Assembly: GCA_028715785.1 (NCBI GenBank)
Contig: JAQURC010000006.1
Location: 21,630-85,629 of the forward strand
Direction of reading: 5' to 3'
DNA length: 64,000 bases
Origin: Candidatus Omnitrophota bacterium
GTDB lineage: Bacteria > Omnitrophota > Gorgyraeia > Gygaellales > Profunditerraquicolaceae
Shown here piece by piece: positions 9,812 to 63,668 of this stretch (positions within the stretch are counted from its first letter, which is position 1; each line of letters starts with the position of its first letter). The notes below the pieces were generated by a model, which worked only from the letters and a program-made list of their open reading frames with translations, was not told the origin of the DNA and did not search any database. Made by a program: the position numbers and the translations under genes.

Positions 9812-9821
9812 AGTTATCAAT

Positions 9822-9858
9822 GTAGCGGAGGTTTAAACCTCCGCTACATTGTGGATAA
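9822..9858. repeat. Palindromic hairpin family P1, copy B (GTAGCGGAGG-TTTAAA-CCTCCGCTAC), plus an adjacent perfect DnaA-box 9-mer TGTGGATAA at 9850-9858.
   Basis: Perfect 26-nt inverted repeat lying intercistronically between the two permease genes. Shares the flank AWTGTGGATAAYT with copy A. Confidence 0.75.
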
Positions 9859-9886: not shown

Positions 9887-10735
9887 ATGATGAACTCATT
9901 TTATTATAAGGGTAAAAAGATCGTGGTAAATACGCTGATCCATCTTTTCCTGATTAGCGTGGCAATAACCTGTCTTTATCCGCTGCTTTGGATGATCGTT
10001 TCAAGCCTTAAAACCCAGGATATGATCTTTAAGGATATTTCTTTGATCCCGCATCAGTTCCGCCTGGAGAATTATGTCCTGGCCTGGAAAGAAGGGGGAT
10101 TCGGCGGAAACTTTTTTAACAGTATTATTTATACCGTTTCGGTAGTCTTCGGGATAGTGATTATTTCTTCCATGGCCGCCTATGCTTTCAGCCGCTTACG
10201 TTTTGCGGGAAGTAAATTTTTGTTCATCATGTTTATGGCGGCAATGATGATCCCCATCCCGGGAAGTTTTGTCGCCCTCTATGTTTTATTAAATAAACTG
10301 CATTTAAGGAATACTCCCATCGGTTATATTCTGTGCATGATTAACGTGGGGCTCTCCACCAGCATATTTTTGCTGAAAACTTTTTTTGATAAGATGCCCA
10401 AGGAGCTGGAAGATGCCGCGCGCATCGACGGCTGCTCGAAAATCGGGATTTGGTGGCATGTTGCCCTGCCGCTGGCCAAGCCGGTGCTGGCGGTGGTGAT
10501 TGTTTTTAACGCTTTAGCCGTATGGAACGAATATATCCTGGCGCTGATTATTTTTGATAACCGCAAGTTCATGCCGCTTCAGGTGGCCTTGCAGTCTTTT
10601 CAGGGCGAGTTCGTCACCAATTATCCGCTGTTAATGGCCGGATTGACGATTACGGCCCTGCCGATTATTTTAGTATATCTTTTTATGCAGAAGTATATTA
10701 TCAAGGGCGTTACCCAGGGAGCGGTAGTAGGATGA
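9887..10735 (+). CDS. Sugar ABC transporter permease (MalG/UgpE-like).
   Basis: EAA motif LEDAARIDGCSKIGIWWHVALPL; six TM segments. Confidence 0.75.
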   Translation: MMNSFYYKGKKIVVNTLIHLFLISVAITCLYPLLWMIVSSLKTQDMIFKDISLIPHQFRLENYVLAWKEGGFGGNFFNSIIYTVSVVFGIVIISSMAAYAFSRLRFAGSKFLFIMFMAAMMIPIPGSFVALYVLLNKLHLRNTPIGYILCMINVGLSTSIFLLKTFFDKMPKELEDAARIDGCSKIGIWWHVALPLAKPVLAVVIVFNALAVWNEYILALIIFDNRKFMPLQVALQSFQGEFVTNYPLLMAGLTITALPIILVYLFMQKYIIKGVTQGAVVG

Positions 10736-10758
10736 GTTGTATAAATTTAAAATTTAAT

Positions 10759-10834
10759 GTGTCATTGCGAGCCCGCAGGGCGAAGCAATCTGGGCTTGGA
10801 TTGCTTCGTCGCCTTCGGCTCCTCGCAATGACAC
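10759..10834. repeat. MITE/REP-like palindromic element, family M (terminal inverted repeats GTGTCATTGCGAG ... CTCGCAATGACAC; internal CGAAGCAATC / GATTGCTTCG), copy 1.
   Basis: 76-nt element with terminal and internal inverted repeats. Homologous copies at 15552, 24941 and 57939. Confidence 0.8.
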
Positions 10835-15551: not shown

Positions 15552-15698
15552 GTGTCATTGCCGGGAGCGCAGCGGTTGCGAGGCGAAGCCGAAGCAAACC
15601 AGCAGCCCCTCGCAACTGGATTCCTTCGCTTCGCTCGGAACAGGCTGCGCAATCCAAAGCGAGATTGCTTCGGGCACTTCGTGCCCTCGCAATGACAC
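15552..15698. repeat. MITE/REP-like family M, copy 2 (long 147-nt variant with extra internal inverted repeats).
   Basis: Starts GTGTCATTGCCGGGAGCGCAGCG, ends CCTCGCAATGACAC; internal GCGAAGCCGAAGCAA / TTGCTTCGGGCACTTCG. Fills the intergenic space upstream of the 15714 gene. Confidence 0.8.
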
Positions 15699-17267: not shown

Positions 17268-17288
17268 ATCCAGCCTCGCCGAAAACTA

Positions 17289-17348
17289 GGGGACGTTTCT
17301 ATTTTTTCATAGCCTCGGCTTCAAAAAAATAGAAACGTTCCCTTTTTC
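17289..17348 (+). terminator. Rho-independent terminator, long-hairpin family T2 (GGGGACGTTTCTATTTTTT ... AAAAAAATAGAAACGTTCCC + TTTTTC).
   Basis: ~19-bp stem with a 15-nt loop and a U-tract, 22 nt after the 17267 stop. A related copy lies at 54114. Confidence 0.6.
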
Positions 17349-23026: not shown

Positions 23027-23034
23027 ATATTTAA

Positions 23035-23091
23035 GGGGACGTGCCAAAAGGGGACACCCTCTTAAAGGGTGTCCCCCAAGAGGACGTCCCC
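23035..23091. terminator. Nested double hairpin (family T1): GGGGACGTGCC-AAAA-[GGGGACACCCT-CTTAA-AGGGTGTCCCC]-CAAGA-GGACGTCCCC. Likely a bidirectional terminator or REP.
   Basis: Inner 11-bp perfect stem nested in an outer ~9-bp stem, 9 nt after the nrdJ stop. The reverse-complement copy lies at 46083. Confidence 0.55.
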
Positions 23092-23114: not shown

Positions 23115-24941
23115 ATGGATAATTTTGATGTAATTATTGTCGGTGCCGGCCATGCCGGCATCGAGGCAAGCTTGGCGTGCGCCCGGCTTGGCGCTAAAAC
23201 CTTGATGCTTACCTTGGATATTAATTCCATCGGTAGGATGAGCTGTAATCCGGCTATCGGCGGGGTAGGCAAGGGCCAGCTGGTAAAAGAAATCGATGCT
23301 TTAGGCGGCCAGATGGGCCGGGCTGCCGATGCCTGCGCGATCCAGTTCCGTATCCTTAACTCCTCAAAAGGCGCGGCGGTGCAGTCATCACGGGCCCAGA
23401 TCGATATGCATAAATATAGCCGTTATATGCGGCGTATAGTTTTACATCAGAAAAATTTAACGGTAAAAGAGGCAGAGGCAAAGAAATTAATCGTTAGAGA
23501 TGGCAGGGTTTTAGGAGTAGTTACGGATAAGGGGGAGATTGGCTCTAAATGCGTAATTATTTGCCCGGGGACATTTTTAGACGGTATAATTCATATAGGG
23601 TTAAAACATTTCAGCGCCGGCCGGATTAATGAACGCGCTTCCGTGGGGCTGGCGGATCACCTGAAAAGTTTAGGTTTTAACACCTTGCGTTTTAAAACCG
23701 GGACCTGCCCGCGCCTGAATAAGCATACCATTAATTTTTCCAATCTAATAATCCAGGAAGGGGATTTAATCCCCAAGCCGTTTTCGTTCTCAACAAAAAA
23801 CATAAAGCAAAAACAGGTTTGCTGCCACATTACTTATACCAATAAAAATACGCATGAGTTAATTCGGGCTAACCTCAACCGCTCCCCGCTTTATGCCGGT
23901 ATAATCAAAGCTACGGGCGTCAGATATTGCCCGTCGATCGAGGACAAAATCGTTAAATTCGCGGATAAAGAACGCCATCAGGTATTTTTAGAGCCCGAAG
24001 GTTTAGGAGTGGATGAAATTTATCCTAACGGCATATCCACCAGTTTACCCGAAGATGTGCAGCTTAAGCTTTTGCATTCTATTGCAGGGTTAGAGACAAC
24101 AAAGGTCATCCGTTTTGGTTATGGCATTGAACATACCGTGGTTGACTCCACTCAGCTTTACCCCAGCCTGGAAACAAAATTAATCAAAAATCTTTTTTTT
24201 GCCGGACAGATTAACGGCACAACCGGTTATGAAGAAGCAGCGGCCCAGGGATTGGTCGCCGGAATTAATGCCGCCCTGCGCCTTAAAGATAAAGAAGCTT
24301 TTATTCTGGACCGCTCAAGCAGCTATATCGGCGTGTTAATCGATGATTTAACCACTAAAGGCACGGCTGAACCATACCGCATGTTTACCTCAAGGGTGGA
24401 ATACCGTTTAATTATCCGCGAGGACAACGCGGACTTGCGTTTAGCCAAGGCAGGCTTTGATTTAGGTTTGGTAAAAAAAGATGTTTACCGTAAAATAAAA
24501 AAGAAAGCCCAGGGTATTAAAGAAGGCCTGATTTTTTTAAGAAAAACCCGGATTAATTGCGCTCCTTTTCATAAACCGTTAACTTTGGAAAAATTATTAA
24601 AACGGCCGCAGATAAGCATCAAAGATGTAAATAAGCTGCATAAATTAAAACCGGCGATACCTGAATCCGCTTGGCGGCAGGTTGAAATTGAGGTAAAATA
24701 TGCCGGGTTTATCCAAAGGCAAGAGAAGGATGTGGAACGGTTTAAGCATATAGAGAAAATCAAGCTCCCGGCGAATTTTGATTACGGCAGTTTAGCCGGC
24801 ATATCCCGGGAGATAAGGGAGAAGTTGTCTAAATTTAGGCCGCTTAATTTGGGCCAGGCCTCGCGTATTTCAGGGGTTACGCCTGCGGCAATTTCCCTGC
24901 TTATGGTTTATTTGAGAAAACTAAAAGGCTGTCCAAGTTAG
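23115..24941 (+). CDS. mnmG: tRNA uridine 5-carboxymethylaminomethyl modification enzyme MnmG (GidA).
   Basis: 608 aa. N-terminal FAD Rossmann motif VIIVGAGHAGIEA. Conserved GidA blocks (YCPSIEDK, GQINGTTGYEEAAAQG) and C-terminal helical domain. Confidence 0.85.
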   Translation: MDNFDVIIVGAGHAGIEASLACARLGAKTLMLTLDINSIGRMSCNPAIGGVGKGQLVKEIDALGGQMGRAADACAIQFRILNSSKGAAVQSSRAQIDMHKYSRYMRRIVLHQKNLTVKEAEAKKLIVRDGRVLGVVTDKGEIGSKCVIICPGTFLDGIIHIGLKHFSAGRINERASVGLADHLKSLGFNTLRFKTGTCPRLNKHTINFSNLIIQEGDLIPKPFSFSTKNIKQKQVCCHITYTNKNTHELIRANLNRSPLYAGIIKATGVRYCPSIEDKIVKFADKERHQVFLEPEGLGVDEIYPNGISTSLPEDVQLKLLHSIAGLETTKVIRFGYGIEHTVVDSTQLYPSLETKLIKNLFFAGQINGTTGYEEAAAQGLVAGINAALRLKDKEAFILDRSSSYIGVLIDDLTTKGTAEPYRMFTSRVEYRLIIREDNADLRLAKAGFDLGLVKKDVYRKIKKKAQGIKEGLIFLRKTRINCAPFHKPLTLEKLLKRPQISIKDVNKLHKLKPAIPESAWRQVEIEVKYAGFIQRQEKDVERFKHIEKIKLPANFDYGSLAGISREIREKLSKFRPLNLGQASRISGVTPAAISLLMVYLRKLKGCPS

Positions 24942-25014
24942 TGTCATTGCCAGGAGCGTAGCGACGAAGCAATCTAATACGAGATTGCTTCGCCCTTCGG
25001 GCTCGCAATGACAC
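24941..25014. repeat. MITE/REP-like family M, copy 3. It fills the entire mnmG-queG intergenic space.
   Basis: GTGTCATTGCCAGGAGCGTAGCGACGAAGCAATC ... GATTGCTTCGCCCTTCGGGCTCGCAATGACAC. Its first G is the last base of the mnmG TAG stop. Its terminal CAATGACAC supplies the ATG (25008) used by the ORF track. Confidence 0.8.
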
Positions 25015-31201: not shown

Positions 31202-32046
31202 AGAAAGAGTTTTCGCAAAATTTGGGATTTTTTGGTTTATTCCTCTGCATGCTTACTACCATTTTGGCCCTGGGCTCAATTATTTATTTTATCGCGGCGC
31301 GTGGATTTAGCGTGTTGAGTTGGAGTTTTCTTACCCAGGTGCCGTATTCGGCGATGACTAAAGGCGGGATTGCGCCGGTTATCGTGGGCACATTTTATAT
31401 TACTTTGGGGGCGATTATGTTTGCTCTTCCGCTGGGGATTGCTTGCGCGGTATATCTTTGCGAGTATTCACCTAAGAGCATCGTGGTAAATATTATTAGA
31501 ATCAGCATCAATAATCTGGCCGGCGTGCCATCGGTTGTCTTTGGCCTATTTGGCTTAGCGGTGTTCGTTAAATTCTTCGGTTTTGGAGTTTCCATTCTCT
31601 CCGGAAGCCTGACTTTAGGGATTTTGGCGCTGCCAATGATAATCTCCTCAGCGCAAGAGGCGCTTTTGGCCGTTCCTCAATCAATCAGGGAAGCTTCATT
31701 ATCTCTGGGGGCGACGAAATGGGGAACTATCAAAAATATCGTCTTACCTACAGCTTTGCCCGGGATCCTTACCGGTGTGATTTTAAGTATTGGCAGGGTG
31801 GCCGGAGAAACTGCACCGATTCTATTTACCGCCGCCGCCTTTTATACGCGCGGCTATCCTAAATCCGTATTTTCCGAAGTCATGGCCCTGCCGTACCATA
31901 TTTACGCGCTGATGACTGAAGGAGCGCATCCGGATAAGCAAAGAGCGATTGCCTATGGTTGCAGCTTGGTGCTTTTATTTTTGGTTTTATTTATTTCAGG
32001 ATTTGCTATATTCTTGCGTCAAAGGCAGAGGAGTTTGTATGGATAA
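31198..32046 (+). CDS. pstA: Phosphate ABC transporter permease PstA.
   Basis: ATGA start/stop overlap with pstC. PstA blocks ([34 protein letters not shown]-loop [12 protein letters not shown]). Confidence 0.8.
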
Positions 32047-32800
32047 CAAGATAAAAATGCAGGCAAAAAACGTGGATTTTTTTTACGGGAAAAACCAGGC
32101 GCTAAAAAATGTCAACCTCAATGTTTATGCCAATAAAGTTACGGCGATGATCGGGCCTTCAGGCTGCGGCAAATCAACATTCATCCGTCTGTTTAACCGG
32201 ATGAATGAATTAGTCGCGCATACAACCCTTAAAGGCAAGATTTTGCTGGATGATTTGGATATTAACAGCCCTCTGGTTGATGCCGTGGATATTCGAAAAA
32301 GGGTGGGGATGGTTTTTCAGAAACCCAATCCTTTTCCTAAAACTATATTTGAAAATATAAGCTACGGTTTAAAAGTGAACGGAATAAAAGATAAAGCGTT
32401 TATTGAGCAGAAGGTTGAAGATTCCTTAAAGAAGGCGGTTATCTGGGCTGAAGTAAAGGACAGGCTTAATGACAGTGCTTTGAAATTATCCGGCGGGCAG
32501 CAACAACGTTTATGTATTGCCCGGTGTTTGGCCGTAGAGACAGAGGTAATACTATTTGATGAGCCATGTGCCAGCCTGGATCCGATATCAACCGCTAAGA
32601 TAGAGGAATTGATTTTGGAGCTTAAAAAAGATTATTCCATTGTGATTGTCACGCATAATATGCAGCAGGCAGCGCGGGTCTCTGATTATACAGGGTTTTT
32701 CCTTTTGGGGGAGTTGATTGAGTTTGGAAAAACGCAGGATATATTTACCGCTCCCAAAGATAAAAAAACCGAGGCTTATATAACCGGTAGGTTTGGTTAA
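32039..32800 (+). CDS. pstB: Phosphate ABC transporter ATPase PstB (canonical).
   Basis: Walker [11 protein letters not shown]-loop [12 protein letters not shown], signature LSGGQQQRL, Walker [13 protein letters not shown]-loop [11 protein letters not shown]. 8-nt overlap with pstA. Start taken as MDNKI (32039), not the track's 31949. Confidence 0.85.
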
Positions 32801-32829
32801 ACAAGGCAACTTATTAGCGAGGTCTGATT

Positions 32830-33507
32830 ATGGAAAGACATTTTGACGTAGAGTTGGCCGATTTAAAAAGTAGTATACTTCAGATGGGTGATTTAGTGGA
32901 GGAAGCGATTATTGATTCGGTGGAGGCGCTTAAACAGTTACGTAAAGATAAAGCTGCCAGGGTGATTGCCGAAGATAAGATTGTTGATGAGTGCGAACTT
33001 AAAATTGATGAAGAGTGTCTGGATCTTTTGGCTTTAAGGCAGCCGATGGCAGTGGACCTGCGTTTTATTACCATGGCGATGAAGATCTCTACTGATTTGG
33101 AAAGAATGGCGGATCTGGCTGTGGATATCTCCCAGCGGGTGTTGGAATTAGCAGATAAGCCGCTGCTTAAGCCGCTGGTAGATATACCAAAATTAACCCT
33201 GCTTGCGCAAAAGATGACTCGTGATGCCATAAGTTCATTTGTTAATAAAGACGCGGAATTAGCCAGGATAGTAATATCGAGCGATCGAGAAGCCGATAAC
33301 CTGCGTGATCTAGTTCAACAGGAGCTGCTCAATGATTATATCTCCAAAAATAAAACAACTATTCCACGCGCTATTCCTTTACTTTTGATTGCCCGCCATC
33401 TTGAGCGTATCTGCGATCACGCCACTAATATCGCCGAAGATGTAATCTATATGGTTGAGGCAAAGGTAGTAAAACACCACCTGGAAAAATTAGATGAAAA
33501 CAGTTGA
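32830..33507 (+). CDS. phoU: Phosphate uptake regulator PhoU.
   Basis: Two PhoU repeats with conserved ERxADxxTNIAE-type motifs (DLERMADLAVDIS; LERICDHATNIAEDVIY). Confidence 0.8.
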   Translation: MERHFDVELADLKSSILQMGDLVEEAIIDSVEALKQLRKDKAARVIAEDKIVDECELKIDEECLDLLALRQPMAVDLRFITMAMKISTDLERMADLAVDISQRVLELADKPLLKPLVDIPKLTLLAQKMTRDAISSFVNKDAELARIVISSDREADNLRDLVQQELLNDYISKNKTTIPRAIPLLLIARHLERICDHATNIAEDVIYMVEAKVVKHHLEKLDENS

Positions 33508-42075: not shown

Positions 42076-42095
42076 TGCGAAAGTTATTAACAGTT

Positions 42096-42121
42096 GTAGG
42101 GGAGGTTTAAACCTCCCCTAC
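42096..42121. repeat. Palindromic hairpin family P1, copy C (GTAGGGGAGG-TTTAAA-CCTCCCCTAC), intercistronic between pstS2 and pstC2.
   Basis: Perfect 26-nt palindrome centred on GTTTAAAC. Confidence 0.75.
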
Positions 42122-42141
42122 ATTAAGGGTATCAGGCGGCT

Positions 42142-43005: not shown

Positions 43006-43853
43006 TGCGTAATACGCAAAGATCACAAAAGATCGCCTTCTTTTTTCTTTTCCTGGCTACGCTTTTAATTGTTGTGCCGGTTGGCTTGATTGTTGTGATT
43101 ATTATCCAGAAAGGCCTGCCGGCGATTAACTGGCAATTTTTAGCGGATATTCCGCGCCAGGGGATGCGCGCCGGAGGGATTTTCCCGGCGATCATCGGGA
43201 CAATTTATCTTGTTTTGGGCGCGATAATCTTTGCCCTGCCCATAGGCCTGCTGGCGGCAATTTATTTAAGTGAATACGCAAAGGACAATATTCTTAACCG
43301 CATAATCAAGCTGGCAATCGTGAATCTCTCCGGTGTGCCTTCGGTTGTCTATGGTTTATTTGGTTTGGCGCTTTTTGTGGTTTTCTTAAAATTTGGCGCA
43401 TCGATTTTATCCGGTTCGCTCACTTTAGGGATAATGATCCTGCCGATAATCATTACTACCTCCCGGGAGGCTTTGGAAAGCGTGCCGCATTCGTTTCGCG
43501 AGGTAAGCTTGTCTTTGGGGGCAAGTAAATGGCAAACCATAAGGCATATAGTTTTACCCAATGCCGTACCCGGAATTCTAACCGGGACCATTCTGGGATT
43601 AGGCCGCGCAGCGGGAGAAACCGCCCCGATTCTTTTTACTGTGGCGGCTTTTTATCTGCCGCAGCTGCCTAAATCTATTTTTGATCAGGCGATGGCGCTG
43701 CCGTATCACTTGTATGTAATTTCAACGCAGGTGCCTAATGTGGATGAAAAAATACGTTATGGCACGGCTTTAGTCCTGTTATCTTTGGTTTTGTTTATGA
43801 ATTTAGTGGCCATAATCATCCGTTATAATTTCAGAAAGAAGAAGAAATGGTAA
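43005..43853 (+). CDS. pstA: Phosphate ABC permease PstA (second copy). Start MRNTQRSQK at 43005 (TAATG overlap); the track's 42696 extension is an out-of-context frame.
   Basis: Paralog of the 31198 gene (GGIFPAIIGTIYLVLGA, NLSGVPSVVYGLFG, REVSLSLGASKW). Confidence 0.75.
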   Translation: MRNTQRSQKIAFFFLFLATLLIVVPVGLIVVIIIQKGLPAINWQFLADIPRQGMRAGGIFPAIIGTIYLVLGAIIFALPIGLLAAIYLSEYAKDNILNRIIKLAIVNLSGVPSVVYGLFGLALFVVFLKFGASILSGSLTLGIMILPIIITTSREALESVPHSFREVSLSLGASKWQTIRHIVLPNAVPGILTGTILGLGRAAGETAPILFTVAAFYLPQLPKSIFDQAMALPYHLYVISTQVPNVDEKIRYGTALVLLSLVLFMNLVAIIIRYNFRKKKKW

Positions 43854-44593
43854 AACTTAACGCCAGGAACCTGAATATCTGGTTTGGCCAGATCCACGCT
43901 TTAAAAAGCGTGAACATCGAGGTAGAGGCCAATGAGATTTTAAGCGTAATCGGCCCGTCCAACAGCGGAAAGACCAGTTTCCTGCGCATGCTTAATCGTC
44001 TGAATGACCTGTATCCGGGTTTTAAAATGAGCGGCAGCTTAGAGTTTGATCAAGAGGATATCAGAAAAATAGATATTGAGGTTTTGCGCAAAAAAGTAGG
44101 CATGGTTTTTGCTTTACCCCTGCCCCTGCCTTTATCGATTTTTGAAAATGTGGCCTATGGGGTCAGGATGCACGGAGAAAATAACCGCGGCCGGATCTCC
44201 GGGATTGTCGAGCGTTCCTTAAAGCAAGCCTATCTCTGGGATGAGGTCAAGGACAGGTTGGATGTCTCGGCTTTTAAATTATCCGGCGGACAGCAGCAGC
44301 GTCTTTGCATTGCCCGGACCCTGGCGGTTGAGCCGGAGGTCATCTTATTCGATGAGCCTTGTTCCGGGCTTGACCCGATTTCAACCGCCAAAGTTGAAGA
44401 GGCAATGTTAAAGCTGAAAAAAGACTATACAATAGTTTTAGTAACTAACAATGTAAAGCAGGCGGCCAGGGTGGGGGACCGCACGGCTTTTTTTCTGTCA
44501 GGAGAGCTGATAGAATTGGACAAAACAGAAAAGATGTTTACGGCGCCCAGCGACCAGCGTACCGATGGCTATATTAGAGGAAAGTTTGGATAA
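43847..44593 (+). CDS. pstB: PstB-like ATPase with degenerate catalytic loops (Q-loop Gln to Ala, H-loop His to Asn); signature motif intact.
   Basis: Walker [11 protein letters not shown]-loop region [13 protein letters not shown] (canonical [10 protein letters not shown]). Signature LSGGQQQRL. Walker [13 protein letters not shown]-loop [12 protein letters not shown] (canonical VTHNMQQ). Confidence 0.75.
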
Positions 44594-45348
44594 TGGCGGA
44601 TATTTTAGTAAATAATTTAAATTTATGGTACGCTGATTTCCAGGCGCTGATAGGCGTAAAAGCGCATTTTACCCAAAAGCAGATTACCGCTATGATTGGG
44701 CCATCAGGGTGCGGTAAGTCGACTTTACTGCGGGTGTTTAACCGGATGAATGACCTTATCGAAGGGGTGCGCGTAGAAGGGGAAGTAATCATTGACGCCG
44801 AAAATATAATTTCCGATAAAACGGATTTAGTGGGCTTGCGTAAAAAAGTAGGCATGGTCTTTCAGCGGCCCAACCCCTTCCCGTTATCTATTTATGAGAA
44901 TATTGTTTTTGGCCAGAAGGTGCATGCCGAAGGCTTAACTAAGCTAAAACTCAATGAGATAGTTGAGGATAGCTTAAAATCCGTTCTTTTGTGGGATGAA
45001 CTTAAAGATAAGCTGAATAAATCCGCGCTGAGTTTGTCGCTTGAACAGAAGCAGCGGCTTTGCATTGCCAGGCTGATCGCGGTTAAGCCTGAGATTTTGC
45101 TGATGGATGAGCCCTGTTCGACCCTTGACCCGCAGGCAACCAGCCGTATCGAAGAATTAATGCGTGAACTTAAGAATAACTATACTATAATAATTGTTAC
45201 GCACAATATGCAGCAGGCAGCGCGCGTTTCGGACCAAACAGGTTTTATGCTTTTAGGCGAATTGGTTGAATTTGGTAAAACAGAGGATATTTTTACCCGG
45301 CCAAAAGATAAGCGGACAGAAGATTATATTACCGGCCGATACGGTTAG
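44593..45348 (+). CDS. pstB: PstB ATPase with consensus catalytic loops but a degenerate ABC signature (LSLEQKQRL instead of LSGGQQQRL).
   Basis: Walker [11 protein letters not shown]-loop [12 protein letters not shown], Walker [13 protein letters not shown]-loop [11 protein letters not shown]. Signature [14 protein letters not shown]. Confidence 0.8.
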
Positions 45349-45383
45349 ACACCCCGCGCTTATAAGGTATTGCGCGGGTATGG
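45349..45383. repeat. REP-like hairpin family R2 (ACACCCCGCGC-TTATAAGGTATT-GCGCGGGTAT), copy 1.
   Basis: ~10-bp GC-rich stem with a conserved 12-nt loop, starting 1 nt after the pstB stop. Further copies at 47899, 51208 (inverted) and 51287 (inverted). Confidence 0.7.
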
Positions 45384-45404
45384 CCTTGTGGCCAAGGAGG
45401 ATAA

Positions 45405-46073
45405 ATGCTAAGGCATTTAGATGAAGAATTAAAGGAACTGCACAAAGATATTTTGAAGATGGCGGTATTTGCCCAGGAGTCGATATTTAAATCTATCGAG
45501 TCGCTAAAGAACCGCGATAAAAACCTGGCTCAGGATGTAATCGATACTGATAATAAGATCGATGAACTGGAGTTGGCAATCGATGAAAAATGCATTGATC
45601 TTATTGCCCGTTATCAGCCGATGGCAGGAGATTTAAGGTATATTACCACCGGGATGAAGATAAATACGGAGCTGGAGCGGATTGCCGACATAGCATTAGA
45701 TATCTCGCAAAAATCATTAGCATTGATGGATAAGCCTTTACTTAAACCATTAGTGGATATTCCCAAGCTTTCCCAGGTGGCGCAGAATATGGTTAAGGAT
45801 GCCATTGACGCATTTGTCAAAAAGGATGCCCAGTTGGCCCGGCAGGTGGTTTTAGCGGATTGCGAAGCCGACAGGTTGCGTAACCTGGTTCAGGATGAGC
45901 TGGTTAATGAATATCTGGCGCGCGATCCTAAAACCGCGGAGCGGGCGGTGGCATTATTGCTTATTGCCCGGTATTTGGAGCGTATCTGCGACCACACTAC
46001 CAATATTGCCGAAGACGTAATTTATATGGTCGAGGCAAAAGTAGTCAAGCACCATCCCGAAGAATTGAAATAA
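45405..46073 (+). CDS. phoU: PhoU (second copy).
   Basis: Paralog of the 32830 gene (ELERIADIALDIS; LERICDHTTNIAEDVIY). Confidence 0.8.
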   Translation: MLRHLDEELKELHKDILKMAVFAQESIFKSIESLKNRDKNLAQDVIDTDNKIDELELAIDEKCIDLIARYQPMAGDLRYITTGMKINTELERIADIALDISQKSLALMDKPLLKPLVDIPKLSQVAQNMVKDAIDAFVKKDAQLARQVVLADCEADRLRNLVQDELVNEYLARDPKTAERAVALLLIARYLERICDHTTNIAEDVIYMVEAKVVKHHPEELK

Positions 46074-46082
46074 TTTCTAGTT

Positions 46083-46150
46083 GGGGGGACGTCCTCTTAG
46101 GGGACACCCTTTAAAAAGGGTGTCCCTTTTTGGCACGTCCCTTTTAATTT
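46083..46150. terminator. Nested double hairpin family T1, copy 2 (reverse-complement orientation of 23035-23091), followed by TTTTAATTT.
   Basis: GGGACGTCC-TCTTA-[GGGGACACCC-TTTAAAAA-GGGTGTCCC]-TTTTTGGCACGTCCC; 10 nt after the phoU2 stop. Confidence 0.55.
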
Positions 46151-46753: not shown

Positions 46754-47914
46754 ATGCAAATATCAAAAGTTGTAGAAAAAATGCAGCCATCGGGCATCCG
46801 GGCGTTCTTTGATTTAGTGCTCGGGATGAAGGATGTTATATCTTTAGGAGTGGGGGAGCCGGATTTTGTCACCCCCTGGCAGATCCGTGAGGCCGGGATC
46901 TATTCCCTGGAGCAGGGTTTTACCAGTTATACCTCGAATAAAGGGCTGTATAAACTGCGTTTAGGAATCCACCGTTTTTTAAAAAGTGAATACGGCCTGG
47001 ACTATTGCCCGGATGAGGAAATATTAATTACCGTGGGAGTCAGCGAGGGCATTGACCTGCTTATGCGGGCGATCATTAACCCCGGCGATAAGATATTGGT
47101 TCCCCAACCCAGTTATGTTTCATACGGCCCGGTTACCGAGCTTGCCGGCGGCACTCCGGTTTATATCGATACCTCAAAAGATGGATTCAAAATCACGCCC
47201 AGGCTTTTAGAAAAACATATCGATAAGAAGACCAAAGGTATTGTTTTGAATTACCCCACCAATCCTACCGGTGTTTCATACCGCCGCAAGGAGCTGCTGG
47301 ATATAAATAAAGTTTTATTAAAACATAAAATACTTTGTATCAGTGATGAAGTTTATGGCGACCTGACTTATGATTTTGAGCATGTTGCTTTTCCGGCTTT
47401 ACCGGGTGCCAGGAAAAATACGGTTTATTTTAACGGATTTTCCAAGTCATACGCGATGACCGGCTGGCGCGTGGGATTTGCCTGCGGCCCGAAAGAGATC
47501 ATCGCGGCGATGACTAAAATCCATCAATATACGATTATGTGCGTATCGATCACCAGCCAGATGGCCGCGGCAGAGGCATTGGTCAGCGGCAGGAGATCGG
47601 TAGAGCAGATGAAACGCGAATATAACCGCAGGCGGGAGCTGATGACCTTTGAATTAAATTCTTTGGGATTAAAATGCTTCCGGCCGCAGGGAGCTTTTTA
47701 TGTTTTTCCCTGCATTAAAAGCGCAGGTTTGTCGTCTATGGAATTCTCGCGCCAATTATTGAAAGAGGAGAAGGTGGCGGTGGTCCCGGGAACTGCTTTT
47801 GGTCCCTGCGCGGAAGGTTATATCAGGATTTCTTACGCTTCCAGCATGGATAATTTAAAGGAAGCTTTGAATAGAATAAAAAGATTTTTAAATAGAAGGA
47901 CACCCCGCGCTTAA
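46754..47914 (+). CDS. PLP-dependent aminotransferase, class I (aspartate/aromatic family).
   Basis: Conserved PLP-lysine context FSKSYAMTGWRVGF. N-terminal ISLGVGEPDF and NYPTNPTG motifs typical of fold-type I aminotransferases. Confidence 0.8.
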   Translation: MQISKVVEKMQPSGIRAFFDLVLGMKDVISLGVGEPDFVTPWQIREAGIYSLEQGFTSYTSNKGLYKLRLGIHRFLKSEYGLDYCPDEEILITVGVSEGIDLLMRAIINPGDKILVPQPSYVSYGPVTELAGGTPVYIDTSKDGFKITPRLLEKHIDKKTKGIVLNYPTNPTGVSYRRKELLDINKVLLKHKILCISDEVYGDLTYDFEHVAFPALPGARKNTVYFNGFSKSYAMTGWRVGFACGPKEIIAAMTKIHQYTIMCVSITSQMAAAEALVSGRRSVEQMKREYNRRRELMTFELNSLGLKCFRPQGAFYVFPCIKSAGLSSMEFSRQLLKEEKVAVVPGTAFGPCAEGYIRISYASSMDNLKEALNRIKRFLNRRTPRA

Positions 47915-47932
47915 AGGTATTGCGCGGGTGTT
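47899..47932. repeat. REP-like hairpin family R2, copy 2 (ACACCCCGCGC-TTAAAGGTATT-GCGCGGGTGTTG). It overlaps the last four codons and the stop of the aminotransferase gene.
   Basis: Same stem and loop as 45349. The gene's C-terminal ...TPRA* is encoded by the element. Confidence 0.7.
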
Positions 47933-51186: not shown

Positions 51187-51320
51187 GGCGTCCTTTGCCC
51201 ACCGGGGCACATCCGCGCAATACCTTATAAGCGCGGGGTGTACCCATATGGGGCCAAAGGACGTTTTTGTTTTCCACCACCTGGTGGACATCCGCGCAAT
51301 ACCTATTAGCGCGGGGTGTT
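51187..51320. repeat. Structured region with two inverted-orientation R2 hairpins (51208-51244 and 51287-51320). The first is nested in an outer stem GGCGTCCTTTGCCC / GGGCCAAAGGACG + TTTTTGTTTT. It precedes the sigma-factor gene.
   Basis: CACATCCGCGC-AATACCTTATAA-GCGCGGGGTGT and GACATCCGCGC-AATACCTATTA-GCGCGGGGTGT, the reverse complements of the 45349 family. The outer 13-bp inverted repeat plus T-run resembles a terminator. Confidence 0.65.
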
Positions 51321-54106: not shown

Positions 54107-54113
54107 GAAACAT

Positions 54114-54168
54114 GGGGACGGTTCTATTTTTCCATAGCTAACCGTGTTCGAAAAATAGAACCGTCCCC
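54114..54168 (+). other. Long perfect hairpin family T2, copy 2 (GGGGACGGTTCTATTTTT-19 nt loop-AAAAATAGAACCGTCCCC) between amt and glnB.
   Basis: 18-bp perfect stem. Related to the terminator at 17289 (shared arms GGGGACGKTTCTATTTTT and loop start CATAGC). No strong U-tract, so probably a partial terminator or processing site. Confidence 0.5.
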
Positions 54169-54195
54169 AGGATTTTAAAAACTCGGGAGGTATAA

Positions 54196-57084: not shown

Positions 57085-57468
57085 ATGATTACTATAGTTA
57101 TTACCGAAGATGAAACAAAGGCAAAAGAGGCTTTGGCTAAGATGTTAAAGCAGGAGGGGTACACTTTATCCCCGGATACAAGCCGGGAAAATGTAATCCG
57201 CGTCGTGAAAAAGGATTGTATAAGGGACCTGGCTTTTATCAAAGACAGGGTAGTGGAATTAGAAAATTCATTGTTTATTGAAAAAAAGGGAGTATTGTAT
57301 AAATCCGTTTTGGAGGCAATCGAGAAACCTTTGCTTGAACAGACGCTAGAGCGTTGTGAAGGCAACCAGCTTAAAGCCGCCCGCATCCTGGGGATTAACC
57401 GCAACACCATGCGGGCCAAAATTAACAAATTAGGTATTGATGTTTCAAGGTGGAAAATAAATTTATGA
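57085..57468 (+). CDS. Small Fis-type HTH protein (like the C-terminal DNA-binding domain of NtrC-family activators, without receiver or AAA+ domains). Start uncertain: 57085 or 57037.
   Basis: C-terminus LEQTLERCEGNQLKAARILGINRNTMRAKINKLGI is the Fis/NtrC HTH signature. The preceding ~80 aa have no sigma-54 activator motifs (no GAFTGA, no Walker A). Confidence 0.5.
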   Translation: MITIVITEDETKAKEALAKMLKQEGYTLSPDTSRENVIRVVKKDCIRDLAFIKDRVVELENSLFIEKKGVLYKSVLEAIEKPLLEQTLERCEGNQLKAARILGINRNTMRAKINKLGIDVSRWKINL

Positions 57469-60400
57469 AACAGGCGCGTTTACCAAAAAAGCAGGGTCTA
57501 TACGACCCGCGGTTTGAGCATGATTCCTGCGGAGTAGGGTTTGTTTGCAATATCAAAGGCAAGAAAAGCCATGATATTGTTAAGCAGGGGCTGGAGGTTT
57601 TACGGCGCTTAAGCCACCGCGGAGCAACCGGCGCGGACCCTAAAACCGGTGACGGCGCGGGCCTGCTTATCCAGTTTCCTCATGAATTTTTTGTATCGAT
57701 ATGCGCGAAAGAAAAGATCAATCTGCCTAAAGAAGGTGAATATGCCTCAGGGTTAGTCTTCCTGCCGCAGGATGCCAAAGAGCGCAGGTTTTGTAAAGAG
57801 GCCTTTGAGAAAATAATTAATAGCGAAGGGCAGTTATTTTTGGGCTGGCGTAATGTACCGGTAGATAATTCTGATATCGGCCAGAGCGCCAAAGACACCC
57901 AGCCGGTGATCGAGCAGATATTTATTGGCGCTGCTGCGGTGTCATTGCGAGCCCCGAAGGGGCGAAGCAATCCAAAAGAGATTGCTTCGTCGCCTGCGGC
58001 TCCTGGCAATGACAATTTAGATAACCTGGCTTTTGAAAGAAAGCTTTATGTTATTCGTAGGCAGGTTGAAAATATTATCCGCGCCTCCAAAATAAAACAA
58101 AAAACATCTTTCTATATTCCCAGCTTGTCCGGCCGCACATTTATCTATAAGGGCCTGCTTATGCCGCATCAGGTAGAAAACTTCTTTTTGGATTTAAGTT
58201 CCCAGGAAATTAAAAGCGCTTTAGCCATGGTCCATTCGCGTTACTCTACCAATACTTTTCCCACCTGGGACCTCTCTCAACCGTTTAGATTTATCGCCCA
58301 TAACGGAGAGATCAATACTTTAAGGGGCAATATTAATTGGATGCGTGCCCGCCAAAACTTCTTAAAGAGCCAATTATTCGGCCAAGACTTAAAGAAAATA
58401 TTTCCGGTAATTGTTCCGGGCGGCAGTGATTCGGCGGCCATTGATAATGTTTTTGAGCTCCTGACCTTGTCCGGCAGAAGCCTGACGCAGGCAATCTCGA
58501 TGCTCATACCGGCTGCTTGGGAACAGAATAACCTGCTTACCCAGGAGGTAAGGGCTTTTCATAAATACCACACCTGTCTTATTGAGCCCTGGGACGGCCC
58601 GGCAGCCATGGTTTTTACTGACGGGATATCTATCGGAGCAGTGCTTGACCGTAACGGATTGCGGCCCTGCCGTTATATTGTTACCAAAGATGATTTTGTG
58701 GTGATGGCCTCCGAAGTAGGAGTTTTAGATATCGATCCTGCCAAGATCCTTCATTCAGGACGGCTTGAGCCGGGCAAGGCATTTTTTATCGATACCAAAG
58801 CCGGGTGCATAATTGAAGACAGCCGGATAAAAAAAGAGCTCAGCGAAGATAAGCCATACGATCAATGGGTTAAGAAGAATATACTGGAGTTAGACAGTTT
58901 AAAAGACAGAGGACAGAAGACAGAAGATAGAGGACAGAGGAGAGAAACAAATATTTTGACCCAATTAAAGGTTTTTGGTTATACCCGCGAAGATCTGAAA
59001 ATGATTATTAAGCCGATGGCTGAAAATGCCCAGGAACCGGTGGGCTCGATGGGCAATGATACCCCGCACGCCGTACTTTCAACCAGGCCGCAACTCTTGT
59101 TTTCCTATTTTAAACAATTATTCGCCCAGGTAACTAACCCTCCGATTGATCCTATCCGTGAGGAGCTGGTGATGAGCCTGGCCAGTTATTTGGGCCCGGA
59201 AAAGAATATTTTAAGCGATGGAGAGGACCACTGCCATAAATTATTAGTAAAACAGCCGATTTTAAACGACGCGGAATTAAAGAAAATCAGAAAAATTAGA
59301 ACAAGCGGATTTAGGACTAAAACAATCTCCATAAATTTTAAGATTTCCGAAAAGGACGCCTTCAAAAGGACATTGGAGAGAATACGTAAAGAGGCAGAGC
59401 AGGCGATATCCGCCAAAGGCGGATCCCTGCCTGTCCGGCAGGCAGGCGCCTCCGGCGGAAAAAAAGGCTATACTTTTATTATTTTAAGCGACCGCGGAGT
59501 GAATAAAGATTATGCCGCTATTCCCAGCCTCCTGGCGGTTTCAGCGCTGCACCATTATCTGGTGCGCCGTTCTTTGCGCACGCAGATCAGCATTATTTTA
59601 GAGAGCGCCGAGCCCCGCGAAGTAAATCATTTTGCCCTGCTTTTTGCCTACGGAGTTGATTGTGTTAATCCGTATCTTGTATTTGGCGCCTTGGAAAAGA
59701 TGGCTAAAGAGAAAGAATTGAACCTTGGCGCCGAGAAGGCAAAGCATAATTACATAAAAGCCATCGACAAAGGGATACTCAAAGTCCTTTCCAAGATGGG
59801 CATCTCGACTTTACAGAGTTACCGCGGGGCCCAGATTTTTGAAGCGGTGGGATTAAATAAAAGCGTAATTGATGAATATTTCACCGGCACAGTTTCCCGG
59901 ATTAACGGCGCATCTTTAGGGGTAATTGTTAAAGAAACTATTCTGCGCCATAAGGAGGCTTTTGCCGTAAGGAGCCAAGGCGAAAATCATCTGGCTTCCG
60001 GCGGCCTTTATCAGTGGAGGCGCGACGGAGAATTCCATCTCTGGAACCCGGACACGATTGCCGCTTTGCAGGATGCCGCGCGCAATAATGATGCCAAAAA
60101 ATATCAGGAGTTTGCCAGCTTAATTAATGATCAGTCAAAAAATCCGACTACTCTAAGAAGCCTGCTAAAATTTAAAATACAAAAATCTATCCCGCTAAGT
60201 GAAGTTGAGCCGGTTGAAGAAATTGTAAAAAGGTTTGCTACCGGGGCGATGAGTTTTGGCTCAATCAGCCGCGCCACGCATGAAACGATTGCTATCGCCA
60301 TGAATAGGTTAGGTGGAAGGTCTAATACTGGAGAGGGCGGCGAAGACCCCGCGCGTTTTGTTCCGTTGCCTGGCGGAGATTCTGCCAGAAGCGCGATAAA

Positions 60401-62132
60401 GCAGGTTGCCTCCGGGCGTTTCGGCGTAACCACGAATTATTTAGTTAATGCCGATGAAATCCAGATAAAAATGGCCCAAGGCGCAAAACCCGGCGAGGGC
60501 GGCCAGCTTCCCGGGCATAAGGTAAGCGCGATAATCGCCAAGACCCGCTATACTACCCCGGGAGTTACTTTGATTTCCCCGCCTCCGCACCATGATATAT
60601 ATTCAATCGAAGATTTAGCGCAGCTTATCTTTGACCTAAAAAACGCAAATCCCAAAGCGCGGATTAGCGTAAAATTAGTTTCTGAAATCGGCGTAGGCAC
60701 GGTAGCCGCGGGTGTGGCTAAAGGGCATGCCGATATGATCCTTATTTCCGGCCAGGACGGAGGCACCGGAGCTTCTCCTTTGAGTTCAATTAAACACGCC
60801 GGACTTCCCTGGGAGCTGGGGCTTTCCGAAACGCACCAGACTTTAGTCTTAAATGATTTAAGGAGCAGGGTGCGCCTGCAGAGTGACGGCCAGATGCGCA
60901 CCGGACGGGATGTGGCGATTGCCGCAATGCTTGGCGCCGAAGAGTTCGGTTTCTGCACCGCGGTATTAATCGTGTTGGGATGCGTGATGCTGCGTCATTG
61001 TAATTTAAATAATTGTTCGGTAGGGATTGCTACCCAAGATGAGATCCTGGAAAAAAGATTTACCGGCCGGCCGGAATATATTATTAATTATTTTACCTTT
61101 ATCGCCGATGAACTGCGCCAGATCATGAGCTCTTTAGGCATAAAAAAATTAGAGGATATGGTCGGCAGGGTGGATCTGCTGGAATTGAATCAGGAGATTT
61201 TACCCTGGAAGGCAAAAGAAATCGATTTTTCTAAAATCCTTTATAAACCTCAGGTGCCGGAGTCAGTAATTACGCATTATTGTAAAAAACAGGACCATGG
61301 TATTGATAAGATTCTGGATTTAAAGTTGATTGAATTATCCGAGCCGGCATTGGCAGAAGCTAAAAACGTGGAAATAAATCAAAAGATCGAAAACGTAAAC
61401 CGCGCCACCGGGGCAATGTTAAGCGGGGAGGTTTGCCGGCGGTTTGGCGAAAGCGGGCTGCCCGAAGATACGATTAAATGTAATTTTAAAGGGGTGGCCG
61501 GCCAAAGCTTCGGGGCTTTTTTGGCCAAAGGGATAACTTTTGCCCTGGAAGGCATGGCTAATGATTATGTGGGCAAAGGGATATCCGGAGGTAAAATTAT
61601 AATTTATCCGGATAAAAAAGTTGATTACAAACCGGATGAAAATATTATTATCGGCAACACTACTTTCTACGGGGCAATCAACGGAGAGGCATATATACGG
61701 GGGGTTGCCGGAGAGAGGTTCTGTATCCGGAATTCCGGGTTAAATGCGGTTATTGAGGGTTTGGGAGACCACGGTTGTGAATATATGACCGGAGGAAGGG
61801 TGGTTGTCCTGGGAAAATGCGGCAGGAATTTCGGGGCAGGGATGTCCGGGGGGATTGCCTATTGTCTGGATGAAAGAAGAGATTTTAAGAAAAAATGTAA
61901 TTTGGAGATGGTGGCTTTGGAGAAAATAAATGCCCAAGACGCAGAGACGATCAAAAACCTGCTGTTTAACCACCGCAAATACACGCAAAGCTTTAAAGCC
62001 AAAGAGATTCTCGATGATTTTCATAAGTATGCCAATCTTTTTGTCAAAGTCATGCCTTTGGAATACAAACGTATATTGGAAGAAAAAAAGGCTGTTGGGA
62101 AGGCTGACCTGGGAGAATATACTGATGGGTGA
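57450..62132 (+). CDS. gltB: Glutamate synthase large subunit GltB (1560 aa), carrying an in-frame family-M repeat insertion and a low-complexity linker insert.
   Basis: Ntn amidotransferase start HDSCGVGFVCN. Central and FMN domains (GGKKGYTFIILSDRG, FGVTTNYLVNADEIQIKMAQGAKPGEGGQLPG, ISGQDGGTGASP). C-terminal GXGXG beta-helix (GAINGEAYIRGVAGERF). Confidence 0.9.
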   Translation: MENKFMKQARLPKKQGLYDPRFEHDSCGVGFVCNIKGKKSHDIVKQGLEVLRRLSHRGATGADPKTGDGAGLLIQFPHEFFVSICAKEKINLPKEGEYASGLVFLPQDAKERRFCKEAFEKIINSEGQLFLGWRNVPVDNSDIGQSAKDTQPVIEQIFIGAAAVSLRAPKGRSNPKEIASSPAAPGNDNLDNLAFERKLYVIRRQVENIIRASKIKQKTSFYIPSLSGRTFIYKGLLMPHQVENFFLDLSSQEIKSALAMVHSRYSTNTFPTWDLSQPFRFIAHNGEINTLRGNINWMRARQNFLKSQLFGQDLKKIFPVIVPGGSDSAAIDNVFELLTLSGRSLTQAISMLIPAAWEQNNLLTQEVRAFHKYHTCLIEPWDGPAAMVFTDGISIGAVLDRNGLRPCRYIVTKDDFVVMASEVGVLDIDPAKILHSGRLEPGKAFFIDTKAGCIIEDSRIKKELSEDKPYDQWVKKNILELDSLKDRGQKTEDRGQRRETNILTQLKVFGYTREDLKMIIKPMAENAQEPVGSMGNDTPHAVLSTRPQLLFSYFKQLFAQVTNPPIDPIREELVMSLASYLGPEKNILSDGEDHCHKLLVKQPILNDAELKKIRKIRTSGFRTKTISINFKISEKDAFKRTLERIRKEAEQAISAKGGSLPVRQAGASGGKKGYTFIILSDRGVNKDYAAIPSLLAVSALHHYLVRRSLRTQISIILESAEPREVNHFALLFAYGVDCVNPYLVFGALEKMAKEKELNLGAEKAKHNYIKAIDKGILKVLSKMGISTLQSYRGAQIFEAVGLNKSVIDEYFTGTVSRINGASLGVIVKETILRHKEAFAVRSQGENHLASGGLYQWRRDGEFHLWNPDTIAALQDAARNNDAKKYQEFASLINDQSKNPTTLRSLLKFKIQKSIPLSEVEPVEEIVKRFATGAMSFGSISRATHETIAIAMNRLGGRSNTGEGGEDPARFVPLPGGDSARSAIKQVASGRFGVTTNYLVNADEIQIKMAQGAKPGEGGQLPGHKVSAIIAKTRYTTPGVTLISPPPHHDIYSIEDLAQLIFDLKNANPKARISVKLVSEIGVGTVAAGVAKGHADMILISGQDGGTGASPLSSIKHAGLPWELGLSETHQTLVLNDLRSRVRLQSDGQMRTGRDVAIAAMLGAEEFGFCTAVLIVLGCVMLRHCNLNNCSVGIATQDEILEKRFTGRPEYIINYFTFIADELRQIMSSLGIKKLEDMVGRVDLLELNQEILPWKAKEIDFSKILYKPQVPESVITHYCKKQDHGIDKILDLKLIELSEPALAEAKNVEINQKIENVNRATGAMLSGEVCRRFGESGLPEDTIKCNFKGVAGQSFGAFLAKGITFALEGMANDYVGKGISGGKIIIYPDKKVDYKPDENIIIGNTTFYGAINGEAYIRGVAGERFCIRNSGLNAVIEGLGDHGCEYMTGGRVVVLGKCGRNFGAGMSGGIAYCLDERRDFKKKCNLEMVALEKINAQDAETIKNLLFNHRKYTQSFKAKEILDDFHKYANLFVKVMPLEYKRILEEKKAVGKADLGEYTDG
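57939..58016. repeat. MITE/REP-like family M, copy 4, inserted in-frame within gltB (encodes AAVSLRAPKGRSNPKEIASSPAAPGND).
   Basis: GTGTCATTGCGAGCCCCGAAGGGGCGAAGCAATCCAAAAGAGATTGCTTCGTCGCCTGCGGCTCCTGGCAATGACAAT. Same terminal and internal inverted repeats as the intergenic copies. 78 nt, which is 26 codons, with no stop. Confidence 0.8.
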
Positions 62133-63572: not shown

Positions 63573-63668
63573 GTAACAGTTCAACTCTTGGAAGCGCTCC
63601 GACAAGATTGTAGGGCAGGTTTAAACCTGCCCTACGACGATCTCCTTCTGAAAGCTGAACTGTTACTA
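63573..63668. repeat. Composite nested hairpin after gltD: outer arms GTAACAGTTCAACTCTTGGAAG / CTTCTGAAAGCTGAACTGTTAC enclose P1 palindrome copy D (63610-63635, GTAGGGCAGG-TTTAAA-CCTGCCCTAC).
   Basis: Perfect 26-nt GTTTAAAC-centred palindrome flanked by a ~22-nt imperfect inverted repeat, 6 nt after the stop. Likely operon terminator or REP. Confidence 0.65.

Follow-up and report, generated by a model that had tools for sequence, protein, structure and literature searches.

CGTC-tagged repetitive extragenic palindromes (REPs) were defined by Di Nocera, De Gregorio and Rocco in 2013 as units with a tag that is often TGTC, or CCTC in a variant, an 8-9 bp stem opening with A-T and T-A pairs, a 4-5 nt loop and a tail close to CCA (PMC3733652). 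They commonly occur as inverted dimers just downstream of open reading frames (ORFs), and some intragenic dimers encode 20-30 amino acids (PMC3733652). The CGTC/TGTC superfamily, which includes RPE-4 as well as RPE-6 of Rickettsia, and Neisseria dRS3, was reported in five phyla, and no dedicated transposase or associated enzyme gene was found for it (PMC3733652). Here we describe a palindromic repeat that lies in frame within gltB, the gene of the glutamate synthase large subunit, in a 64,000-nt stretch of the Candidatus Omnitrophota contig JAQURC010000006.1 (GCA_028715785.1, positions 21,630-85,629 of the forward strand). The whole of this stretch is referred to as the window.

A connection between such repeats and an enzyme was provided by Chenal et al. 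(2025), who described an extended dRS3 motif, NTS (CGTCATTCCCGCGMAVGCGGGAATCYRG), and SRM hairpins flanking small GIY-YIG genes (PMC11893778). Ssn proteins (cd10448) cut single-stranded DNA (ssDNA) beside a hairpin, and the NTS-ssnA-NTS layout was likened to an insertion sequence (PMC11893778). Sphingomonads are reported to carry CGTC REPs or SRM-type repeats (PMC3733652, PMC11893778). In contrast to the gltB case, the 2025 study makes no mention of the term 'intragenic', and both of its uses of 'coding sequence' concern other matters (PMC11893778). In-frame palindromes have a longer history. The Rickettsia palindromic elements (Ogata et al. 2000, 2002) are described in PMC10969869 as inserted in frame in unrelated housekeeping genes, translated, and compatible with the protein fold. 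Like these elements, the gltB repeat is an in-frame palindrome translated as an extra peptide segment. Insertions of this kind have been known since the Rickettsia elements, and the present one adds a case in which both the phylum and the host gene are new.

The window repeat resembles the CGTC REPs in its TGTC/CGTC tag and its stem beginning with AT (ATTGC...GCAAT), and may also share with them the short C-C/T-N tail. All four window copies are inverted dimers that can fold as one long hairpin. As in the CGTC REPs, copies normally lie just downstream of ORFs, and some dimers lie inside ORFs. In contrast to the published units, those of the window are longer (33-37 nt), and in place of an 8-9 bp stem they have 5 contiguous base pairs enclosing a variable interior of 9-25 nt that is often itself a hairpin. 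The Omnitrophota, Chloroflexota and Patescibacteria hosts of the present family also lie beyond the five reported phyla. The likeness extends to the NTS, in which CGTCATT-stem-loop-stem-AATCYRG may be set beside (C/T)GTCATT...AATC(C/T)N of the window-family units, and to the genetic layout, since ~95-aa single-domain GIY-YIG genes are flanked by the repeat on both sides, as in NTS-ssnA-NTS.

In-frame insertion of the repeat in gltB

The gltB ORF, whose true start is likely the ATG at 57465, passes through the repeat in frame with zero stops (Table 1), and the remainder of its product is a complete GltB. Four Pfam domains, GATase_2, Glu_syn_central, Glu_synthase and GXGXG, are full-length in the window protein. 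It thus comprises the class-II amidotransferase domain with its N-terminal Cys and the central, FMN/synthase and GXGXG domains by which a GltB is recognized. It also keeps the family-invariant residues and the catalytic Cys that follows the propeptide, and it matches PDB entries 7mfm, 1ea0 and 1ofd with E-values down to 2e-151. The neighbourhood is that of nitrogen assimilation, amtB-glnB-glnA(III)-HTH_8-gltB-gltD, with a type III glutamine synthetase and an HTH_8 regulator. The same cluster is found at another locus, L120, whose GltB homologue is 77% identical.

Alignment with Bacillus subtilis GltA (7mfm_G) pairs residues 9-163 of the window protein with residues 4-156 and residues 188-482 with residues 157-447, leaving nothing opposite residues 164-187. 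The segment is also missing from all of 120 homologues aligned with MAFFT, including the nearest ones at 83% and 77% identity. Between FIG and the (L)xFERKLY motif, these nearest homologues and nearly all others have ~8 residues, versus 32 in the window GltB. At the codon level, FIG-RNKKITDS-LVFERKLY of L120 stands against FIG-AAA-[repeat]-NLDN-LAFERKLY of the window. The net gain over the orthologues is 24 aa (72 nt), corresponding to residues 164-187 and nt 57939-58010.

Because the repeat spans 76-78 nt and the gain is 72 nt, either the final two repeat codons took the place of codons of the host loop, or the host gene lost a few bases; the empty site is represented by L120, which at 77% protein identity is too diverged for base-exact junctions. 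The core blocks of the gltB segment are DNA-identical to those of the intergenic copies. An in-frame insertion of the repeat in an otherwise intact gltB is confirmed. An ancestral GltB loop, considered as a different origin of the segment, was ruled out by the B. subtilis GltA and 120-homologue alignments. An earlier reading of the window, made from the sequence only, had proposed this insertion, the uninterrupted frame and the intact 1560-aa enzyme, and all three withstand the comparison, the 8-aa loop of L120 included. It had also put the gain at ~26 residues with ends exactly at the repeat boundaries; the gain is indeed in frame, but it amounts to 24 residues and does not coincide exactly with the repeat boundaries.

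The gltB copy reads GTGTCATTGCGAGCCCCGAAGGGGCGAAGCAATCCAAAAGAGATTGCTTCGTCGCCTGCGGCTCCTGGCAATGACAAT, in which the blocks follow the order GTGTCATTGCGAG...CGAAGCAATC...GATTGCTTCG...GGCAATGACAA, and it translates as VSLRAPKGRSNPKEIASSPAAPGN(DN). This peptide is rich in A, S, P, G and R because the stems of the repeat are GC-rich. One unit has the sequence TGTCATTGCGAGCCCCGAAGGGGCGAAGCAATCCA. The right unit of the gltB copy departs from the consensus by one mismatch in its outer block and by one more in the base flanking the tag. With as many as 2 mismatches allowed, the 13-mer end motif GTGTCATTGCGAG is present at 8 window sites where 0.76 are expected, and 0 of 100 shuffles reached 8. These eight sites are the two ends of each of four elements, all of which fold far better than shuffled controls (-44 kcal/mol and z = -8.4 for the gltB copy). 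The sequence-only reading was therefore right about the palindromic copy in gltB. The companion copies that it placed at 10759, 15552 and 24941 are all present too, although the second is a 147-nt composite and not a simple copy. The three intergenic copies begin at or closely behind the upstream stop codon, at the distances given in Table 1.

The recipient loop of the amidotransferase domain

We explain these results by the landing, in a loop of gltB, of a repeat that is itself non-coding and consists of two inverted REP-like units; there it would be translated as a tolerated extra loop. We assign this reading a probability of about 0.8. In the proposed course of events, a repeat copy would land in gltB between a β-strand and an α-helix of the N-terminal amidotransferase domain. 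With a net change that is a multiple of three and a frame free of stops, gltB would stay open, and the repeat would be translated as a flexible extra loop of ~24 residues. Presumably, selection did not remove the insertion because this GltB loop tolerates length changes. Judging from the preserved sequence, the enlarged GltB is probably made and active.

An AlphaFold2 model of residues 1-450, computed with 60 aligned sequences, has a mean predicted local distance difference test score (pLDDT) of 82.5. The insert is flanked by strand 153-160 (pLDDT ~97) and helix 188-212 (90 or more), and the 10-residue blocks over it have mean pLDDT values of 65, 46 and 45. The model superposes on 7mfm_G with a root-mean-square deviation of 1.9 Å over 423 of 450 columns, and the predicted fold is thus unchanged apart from the extra loop. 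A tolerated surface loop had been suggested from the sequence, and the tolerance finds support both in this low-pLDDT insert between a confident strand and a confident helix and in other insertions at the same place. The model and the alignment show the insertion site to be a predicted permissive loop of the N-terminal amidotransferase domain.

Further homologues in the 120-member alignment bear other insertions in the same loop. In homologue P0009 (locus L121), which is annotated as Omnitrophota, the loop contains a palindrome with 25-nt arms, AAAATAGGGACAGCTACCATTTTTC...GAAAAATGGTAGCTGTCCCTATTTT; that of P0006 (L203) contains the palindrome ACAGGGACACATTACTTAATTCC...GGAATTAAGTTATGTGTCCCTGA, and that of P0064 (L205) two small hairpins. 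The three belong to repeat families unlike that of the window, and two of the three homologues are encoded at loci with the same neighbouring nitrogen-assimilation genes. At least four homologues, the window's included, have thus acquired palindromes independently in this single GltB loop. In the literature searched, we found no description of unrelated palindromes that return to the same GltB loop in this way. This pattern offers a natural test of site choice versus filtering by selection, and the loop is a candidate permissive site for engineering tags into glutamate synthase (GOGAT). Within the window, palindromes of the GGGGACG.../GGGACACCC and GGGGACGGTTCTATTTTTC types (23029-23091, 46078-46148, 17288-17343 and 54108-54174) resemble the L121 and L203 loop palindromes by eye, unaligned.

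The absence of the insertion from all 120 homologues, together with a second small palindromic insertion in the central domain of GltB, could also be taken to mean that the gene is damaged, a young pseudogene crippled by the insertion, with glutamate supplied by another enzyme or another copy. We consider this improbable. The 1560-aa frame is open through both insertions with four full-length domains, the catalytic Cys and the invariant residues are kept, and the loop that took up the insertion differs in length among family members. Substitutions in the right outer block of the repeat would argue against a very recent event, and the operon context is conserved. If, as we favor, the repeat is translated within an active GltB, selfish repeats can be carried in translated form by a core enzyme of nitrogen assimilation in an uncultured phylum, and annotators should therefore expect such segments.

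The second small insertion in gltB lies at 59412-59461. Residues 656-671 (KGGSLPVRQAGASGGK), in the central domain, have no counterpart in B. subtilis GltA, and their DNA consists of the small hairpins TCCGCCaaaGGCGGA and CCTGCCTGtccggCAGGCAGG. A 21-mer of this insertion has no other copy within the window. At ~58896-58950, in the linker after the amidotransferase domain, a short GltB motif, DRGQKTEDRGQRRETN, is duplicated, and this duplication makes the linker 6 residues longer than in B. subtilis GltA.

The repeat family and its association with small GIY-YIG genes

Scanned with an exact 30-base pattern of the repeat, a set of genomes in which each species is represented once yielded at least 119 loci. 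Hosts among the matches listed belong to Omnitrophota, Chloroflexota, Planctomycetota, Binatia, Nitrospirota, Patescibacteria, Cyanobacteria, Elusimicrobiota, Acidobacteriota, Spirochaetota, Pseudomonadota and others, and the family is present in more than 20 phylum-level groups, the candidate phyla radiation included. Its conserved blocks are A, (G)TGTCATTGCGAG, and B, CGAAGCAATC, with their complements B' and A'. The A-B and B'-A' gaps are variable and often contain small hairpins, and the central loop is variable as well. In general form, a unit is (T/C)GTC-ATTGCGAG-variable small hairpin-CGAAGCAAT-C(C/T)N, and the element consists of two such units that meet at their tails; the window units are TGTC-ATT-GCGAG...CGAAGC-AAT-C(C/T)N. 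All eight unit ends in the window are TGTC, and the metagenome and Novosphingobium copies have CGTC. The tail is CCA in the left gltB unit, CTG, CTA or CTC in the other window units, and CCAG in the metagenome and Novosphingobium copies.

Searches with blastn found no match to the repeat in phage genomes and, in plasmids, only partial single-unit matches, ~34 nt long, on two megaplasmids of Novosphingobium, a sphingomonad. Around one of these matches, on a Novosphingobium resinovorum megaplasmid, the sequence contains a complete dimer with the CGTC tag and CCAG tail. No Rfam family was matched, either at the gathering threshold over the whole window or at a permissive E-value on the element. 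Full-text literature searches with the repeat DNA strings and the encoded peptides returned chance primer matches or nothing, and a search for palindromic repeats in Omnitrophota returned nothing.

The 13-bp terminal inverted repeats, the small size, the many copies and the presence or absence of the element at orthologous sites are features of a classical miniature inverted-repeat transposable element (MITE), that is, a deletion derivative of an insertion sequence with a DDE transposase, moved in trans by cut-and-paste through its terminal inverted repeats. The sequence-only reading had called the element MITE-like. Terminal inverted repeats are indeed present, but the ends are TGTC/CGTC-tagged REP-like units that fit the CGTC-REP formula, and no target-site duplication occurs at 114 copies among the matches listed. 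The flanks of these copies are random beyond a G at -1 and a C at +1, with no conserved target motif. A longer element that combines these ends with a transposase was not found in the at least 119 loci listed, and the sole gene found to be enclosed or adjoined by the repeats encodes a GIY-YIG protein of ~95 aa. We therefore regard a classical MITE as a poor candidate. REPINs, which are inverted doublets of GTAG-tagged REPs that form a long hairpin, leave no target duplications and flank one small nuclease/transposase gene (RAYT), are among the known systems most like it. The window family shares with them the inverted doublets, the lack of target duplications and the single repeat-flanked small enzyme gene. 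It differs in having a TGTC/CGTC tag and a GIY-YIG protein, versus the GTAG tag and HUH/Y1 transposase of the REPIN-RAYT system.

The link to the GIY-YIG genes was evident from both directions. In L061, a Brocadia contig, a distance of 320 nt separates the A-B half of the repeat from the B'-A' half, with an 84-aa GIY-YIG ORF between them, and tblastn over the at least 119 listed loci detected three more GIY-YIG ORFs, each less than 100 nt from repeat parts. Conversely, among 80 metagenome loci picked solely by protein similarity, 72 show a repeat end no more than 150 nt away from the ORF. Repeat sites occur there at 9.2/kb within 150 nt of the ORF, 2.4/kb at 150-500 nt and 0.3/kb beyond 500 nt, a ~30-fold enrichment over the distal flanks in what is a family-level test. 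The dominant layouts are A-B-ORF-B'-A' and complete elements on either side of the ORF. The associated proteins (~95 aa) match Pfam GIY-YIG and no specific family in NCBIfam. They are single-domain, with Tyr/Tyr/Glu positions that fit Ssn, and their nearest solved structures are UPF0213 proteins. On a Patescibacteria contig (L089, 6850-7340), another ORF of this kind lies inside a sister repeat, GTCATCCTGA...GAAGGATC, with ends GTCATCCTGAACGAAGTGAAGGATC ... GATCCTTCGCTATCGCTCAGGATGAC, which suggests that several co-varying repeat/nuclease pairs exist.

These sequence comparisons show the repeat family to be tightly linked to small GIY-YIG genes that resemble those of the Ssn single-strand nucleases. 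Because family members cluster around or enclose such genes, the ~75-nt repeat may be seen as the gene-less form of a GIY-YIG cassette. By analogy to the Ssn proteins, spread of the repeat may depend on an Ssn-like single-strand nuclease that acts on the hairpin in ssDNA. A very widespread repeat would thus be tied to a recently described nuclease-hairpin system, and we did not find this putatively Ssn-linked hairpin variant, which the published SRM motif misses, named in Rfam or in the literature searched.

Insertion in coding sequence is not confined to gltB. Among 117 listed copies, 17 are spanned by a frame that runs on for 60 or more codons to either side without a stop, as counted by a screen that detects readable copies only, and about nine of these are in plausible genes. 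A phosphoglycerate kinase (PGK; locus L094) has its Pfam model covered in full across the in-frame repeat, a ComEC protein (L117) carries the repeat between its DUF4131 and Competence domains, and a chorismate-binding, isochorismate-synthase-like enzyme (L096) carries another in frame, all by Pfam assignment. In the phosphoglycerate kinase, encoded at 3730-5112 of L094 in a metagenome-assembled genome, the repeat occupies aa 110-139, and a second insertion of different sequence follows ~50 residues on.

The element lengths are evenly spread modulo 3 (33, 38 and 46 of 117, the 33 being multiples of three), and on either strand, usually just one or two frames out of three are free of stops. Adaptation of the family to coding was rejected on these two grounds. 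From the uniform lengths, coding compatibility appears to be a matter of chance plus selection: about every fifth to seventh random insertion would give a readable frame, and of these only the ones in tolerant loops would then be kept by selection. The claim that the family is coding-compatible accordingly holds for the occurrence of in-frame copies in PGK, ComEC and the isochorismate-synthase-like protein, but not in the sense of a repeat adapted for coding. Rickettsia RPE-1 differs in this respect, being ~150 bp long with a conserved peptide of its own, compared with 74-78 nt for the window element and only ~8% of its sampled copies in long open frames; unlike the Rickettsia elements, the window family has lengths without bias toward multiples of three.

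The very stable hairpin predicted for the gltB copy, and side hairpins that change in sequence yet remain hairpins, would also suit a repeat that is not translated, either acting as a regulatory hairpin in RNA or being removed or bypassed, with the open frame incidental. This is very unlikely. No Rfam family matches, repeats of this class are not known to have splice-like or bypass signals, and the published Ssn enzymes act on ssDNA, not RNA (PMC11893778). Furthermore, the copies within long frames are stop-free and keep the host frame, as selection on translated insertions predicts, within a screen that saw readable copies only. Least likely of all is the misjoining of a repeat copy into gltB, a common assembly error at elements repeated in a genome, as the gene runs on in one frame on either side of the repeat and orthologous residues adjoin it directly, where a misjoin would normally link unrelated loci, and comparable in-frame copies occur in independent assemblies.

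Some results weigh against the reading of a mobile REP-like repeat that landed in gltB and is tolerated there. Neither tblastn nor a profile hidden Markov model detected an ssn-like ORF within the 64-kb window, and the role published for Ssn in Neisseria is the restriction of transforming ssDNA (PMC11893778). The published SRM string, HGTCWYN(0-2)YYVSBRHN(0-5)WNVSBRGN(0-2)RNCYNB, has 0 matches in the window and matches 0 of 6 units, whereas the canonical NTS used as control is matched. The AlphaFold2 model, for its part, cannot show solvent exposure of the insert in the holoenzyme complex. Since its stem departs from a plain helix of 8-9 bp and no unit is matched by the SRM string, the window element is treated here, on the basis of its sequence, as a variant, non-canonical member of the CGTC-REP/SRM class.

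A broader proposal would make the ~8-aa loop between FIG and FERKLY a preferred landing site, extend the Ssn-hairpin system through this family to a wider range of hosts, and consider the dimer with a nuclease gene inside its hairpin as a minimal mobile element with 75-nt gene-less miniatures. We regard this combination as doubtful. If landing in the GltB loop were preferred, it would point to a target preference of hairpin repeats for a local DNA or replication feature.

Window features and further palindromes

The copies of the repeat in the window, the two units of the gltB copy and the host gene are listed in Table 1.

Table 1 Positions of gltB and of the palindromic repeat copies in the window.
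Feature	Position	Strand	Description
gltB, glutamate synthase large subunit, host of the insertion	57450..62132	+	1560-aa ORF
Palindromic repeat in gltB	57939..58016 (outer end also 58015)	+	tail-to-tail pair of two TGTC-tagged hairpin units
Left unit of gltB copy	57940..57974	+	TGTC tag, ATTGCGAG, variable hairpin CCCCGAAGGGG, CGAAGCAAT, tail CCA
Right unit of gltB copy, inverted	57978..58014	-	TGTC tag, ATTGCCAG, GAGCCGCAGGCGA, CGAAGCAAT, tail CTC
Intergenic copy, 76 nt	10759..10834	+	begins 24 nt past the upstream ORF stop
Composite copy, 147 nt	15552..15698	+	intergenic, begins 12 nt past the upstream stop codon
Intergenic copy, 74 nt, opposite orientation	24941..25014	-	first base is the G of the mnmG/gidA TAG stop (0 nt)

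The composite copy contains ~70 nt of extra hairpin-forming sequence between an outer and an inner block, and looks like a nested or expanded variant. The 76-nt intergenic copy falls within the longest ORF (10732-13119) of the gene that follows, which is glycosyl hydrolase family 2-like; this ORF starts before the copy and runs through it. The true start of this gene is probably downstream of the repeat, and the copy could be mis-annotated as coding. Annotators should also expect many spurious short ORFs from intergenic copies.

Other repeats are present in the window. A separate palindrome family, TGTAGGGGAGGTTTAAACCTCCCCTACA, has a GTAG tag like that of RAYT-associated REPs and occurs at 939-975, 9821-9857, 42095-42131 and 63609-63645. 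Another palindromic family, ACACCCCGCGCTTATAAGGTATTGCGCGGGTGT, has four window copies, at 45349-45395, 47900-47931, 51195-51241 and 51288-51319. Direct repeats of 60-80% identity, ~11.8-12.6 kb apart, lie at 31513-33491 and 43323-46066 and look like two paralogous gene clusters. One of these direct repeats covers an ABC-type ATPase motif, as judged by eye.

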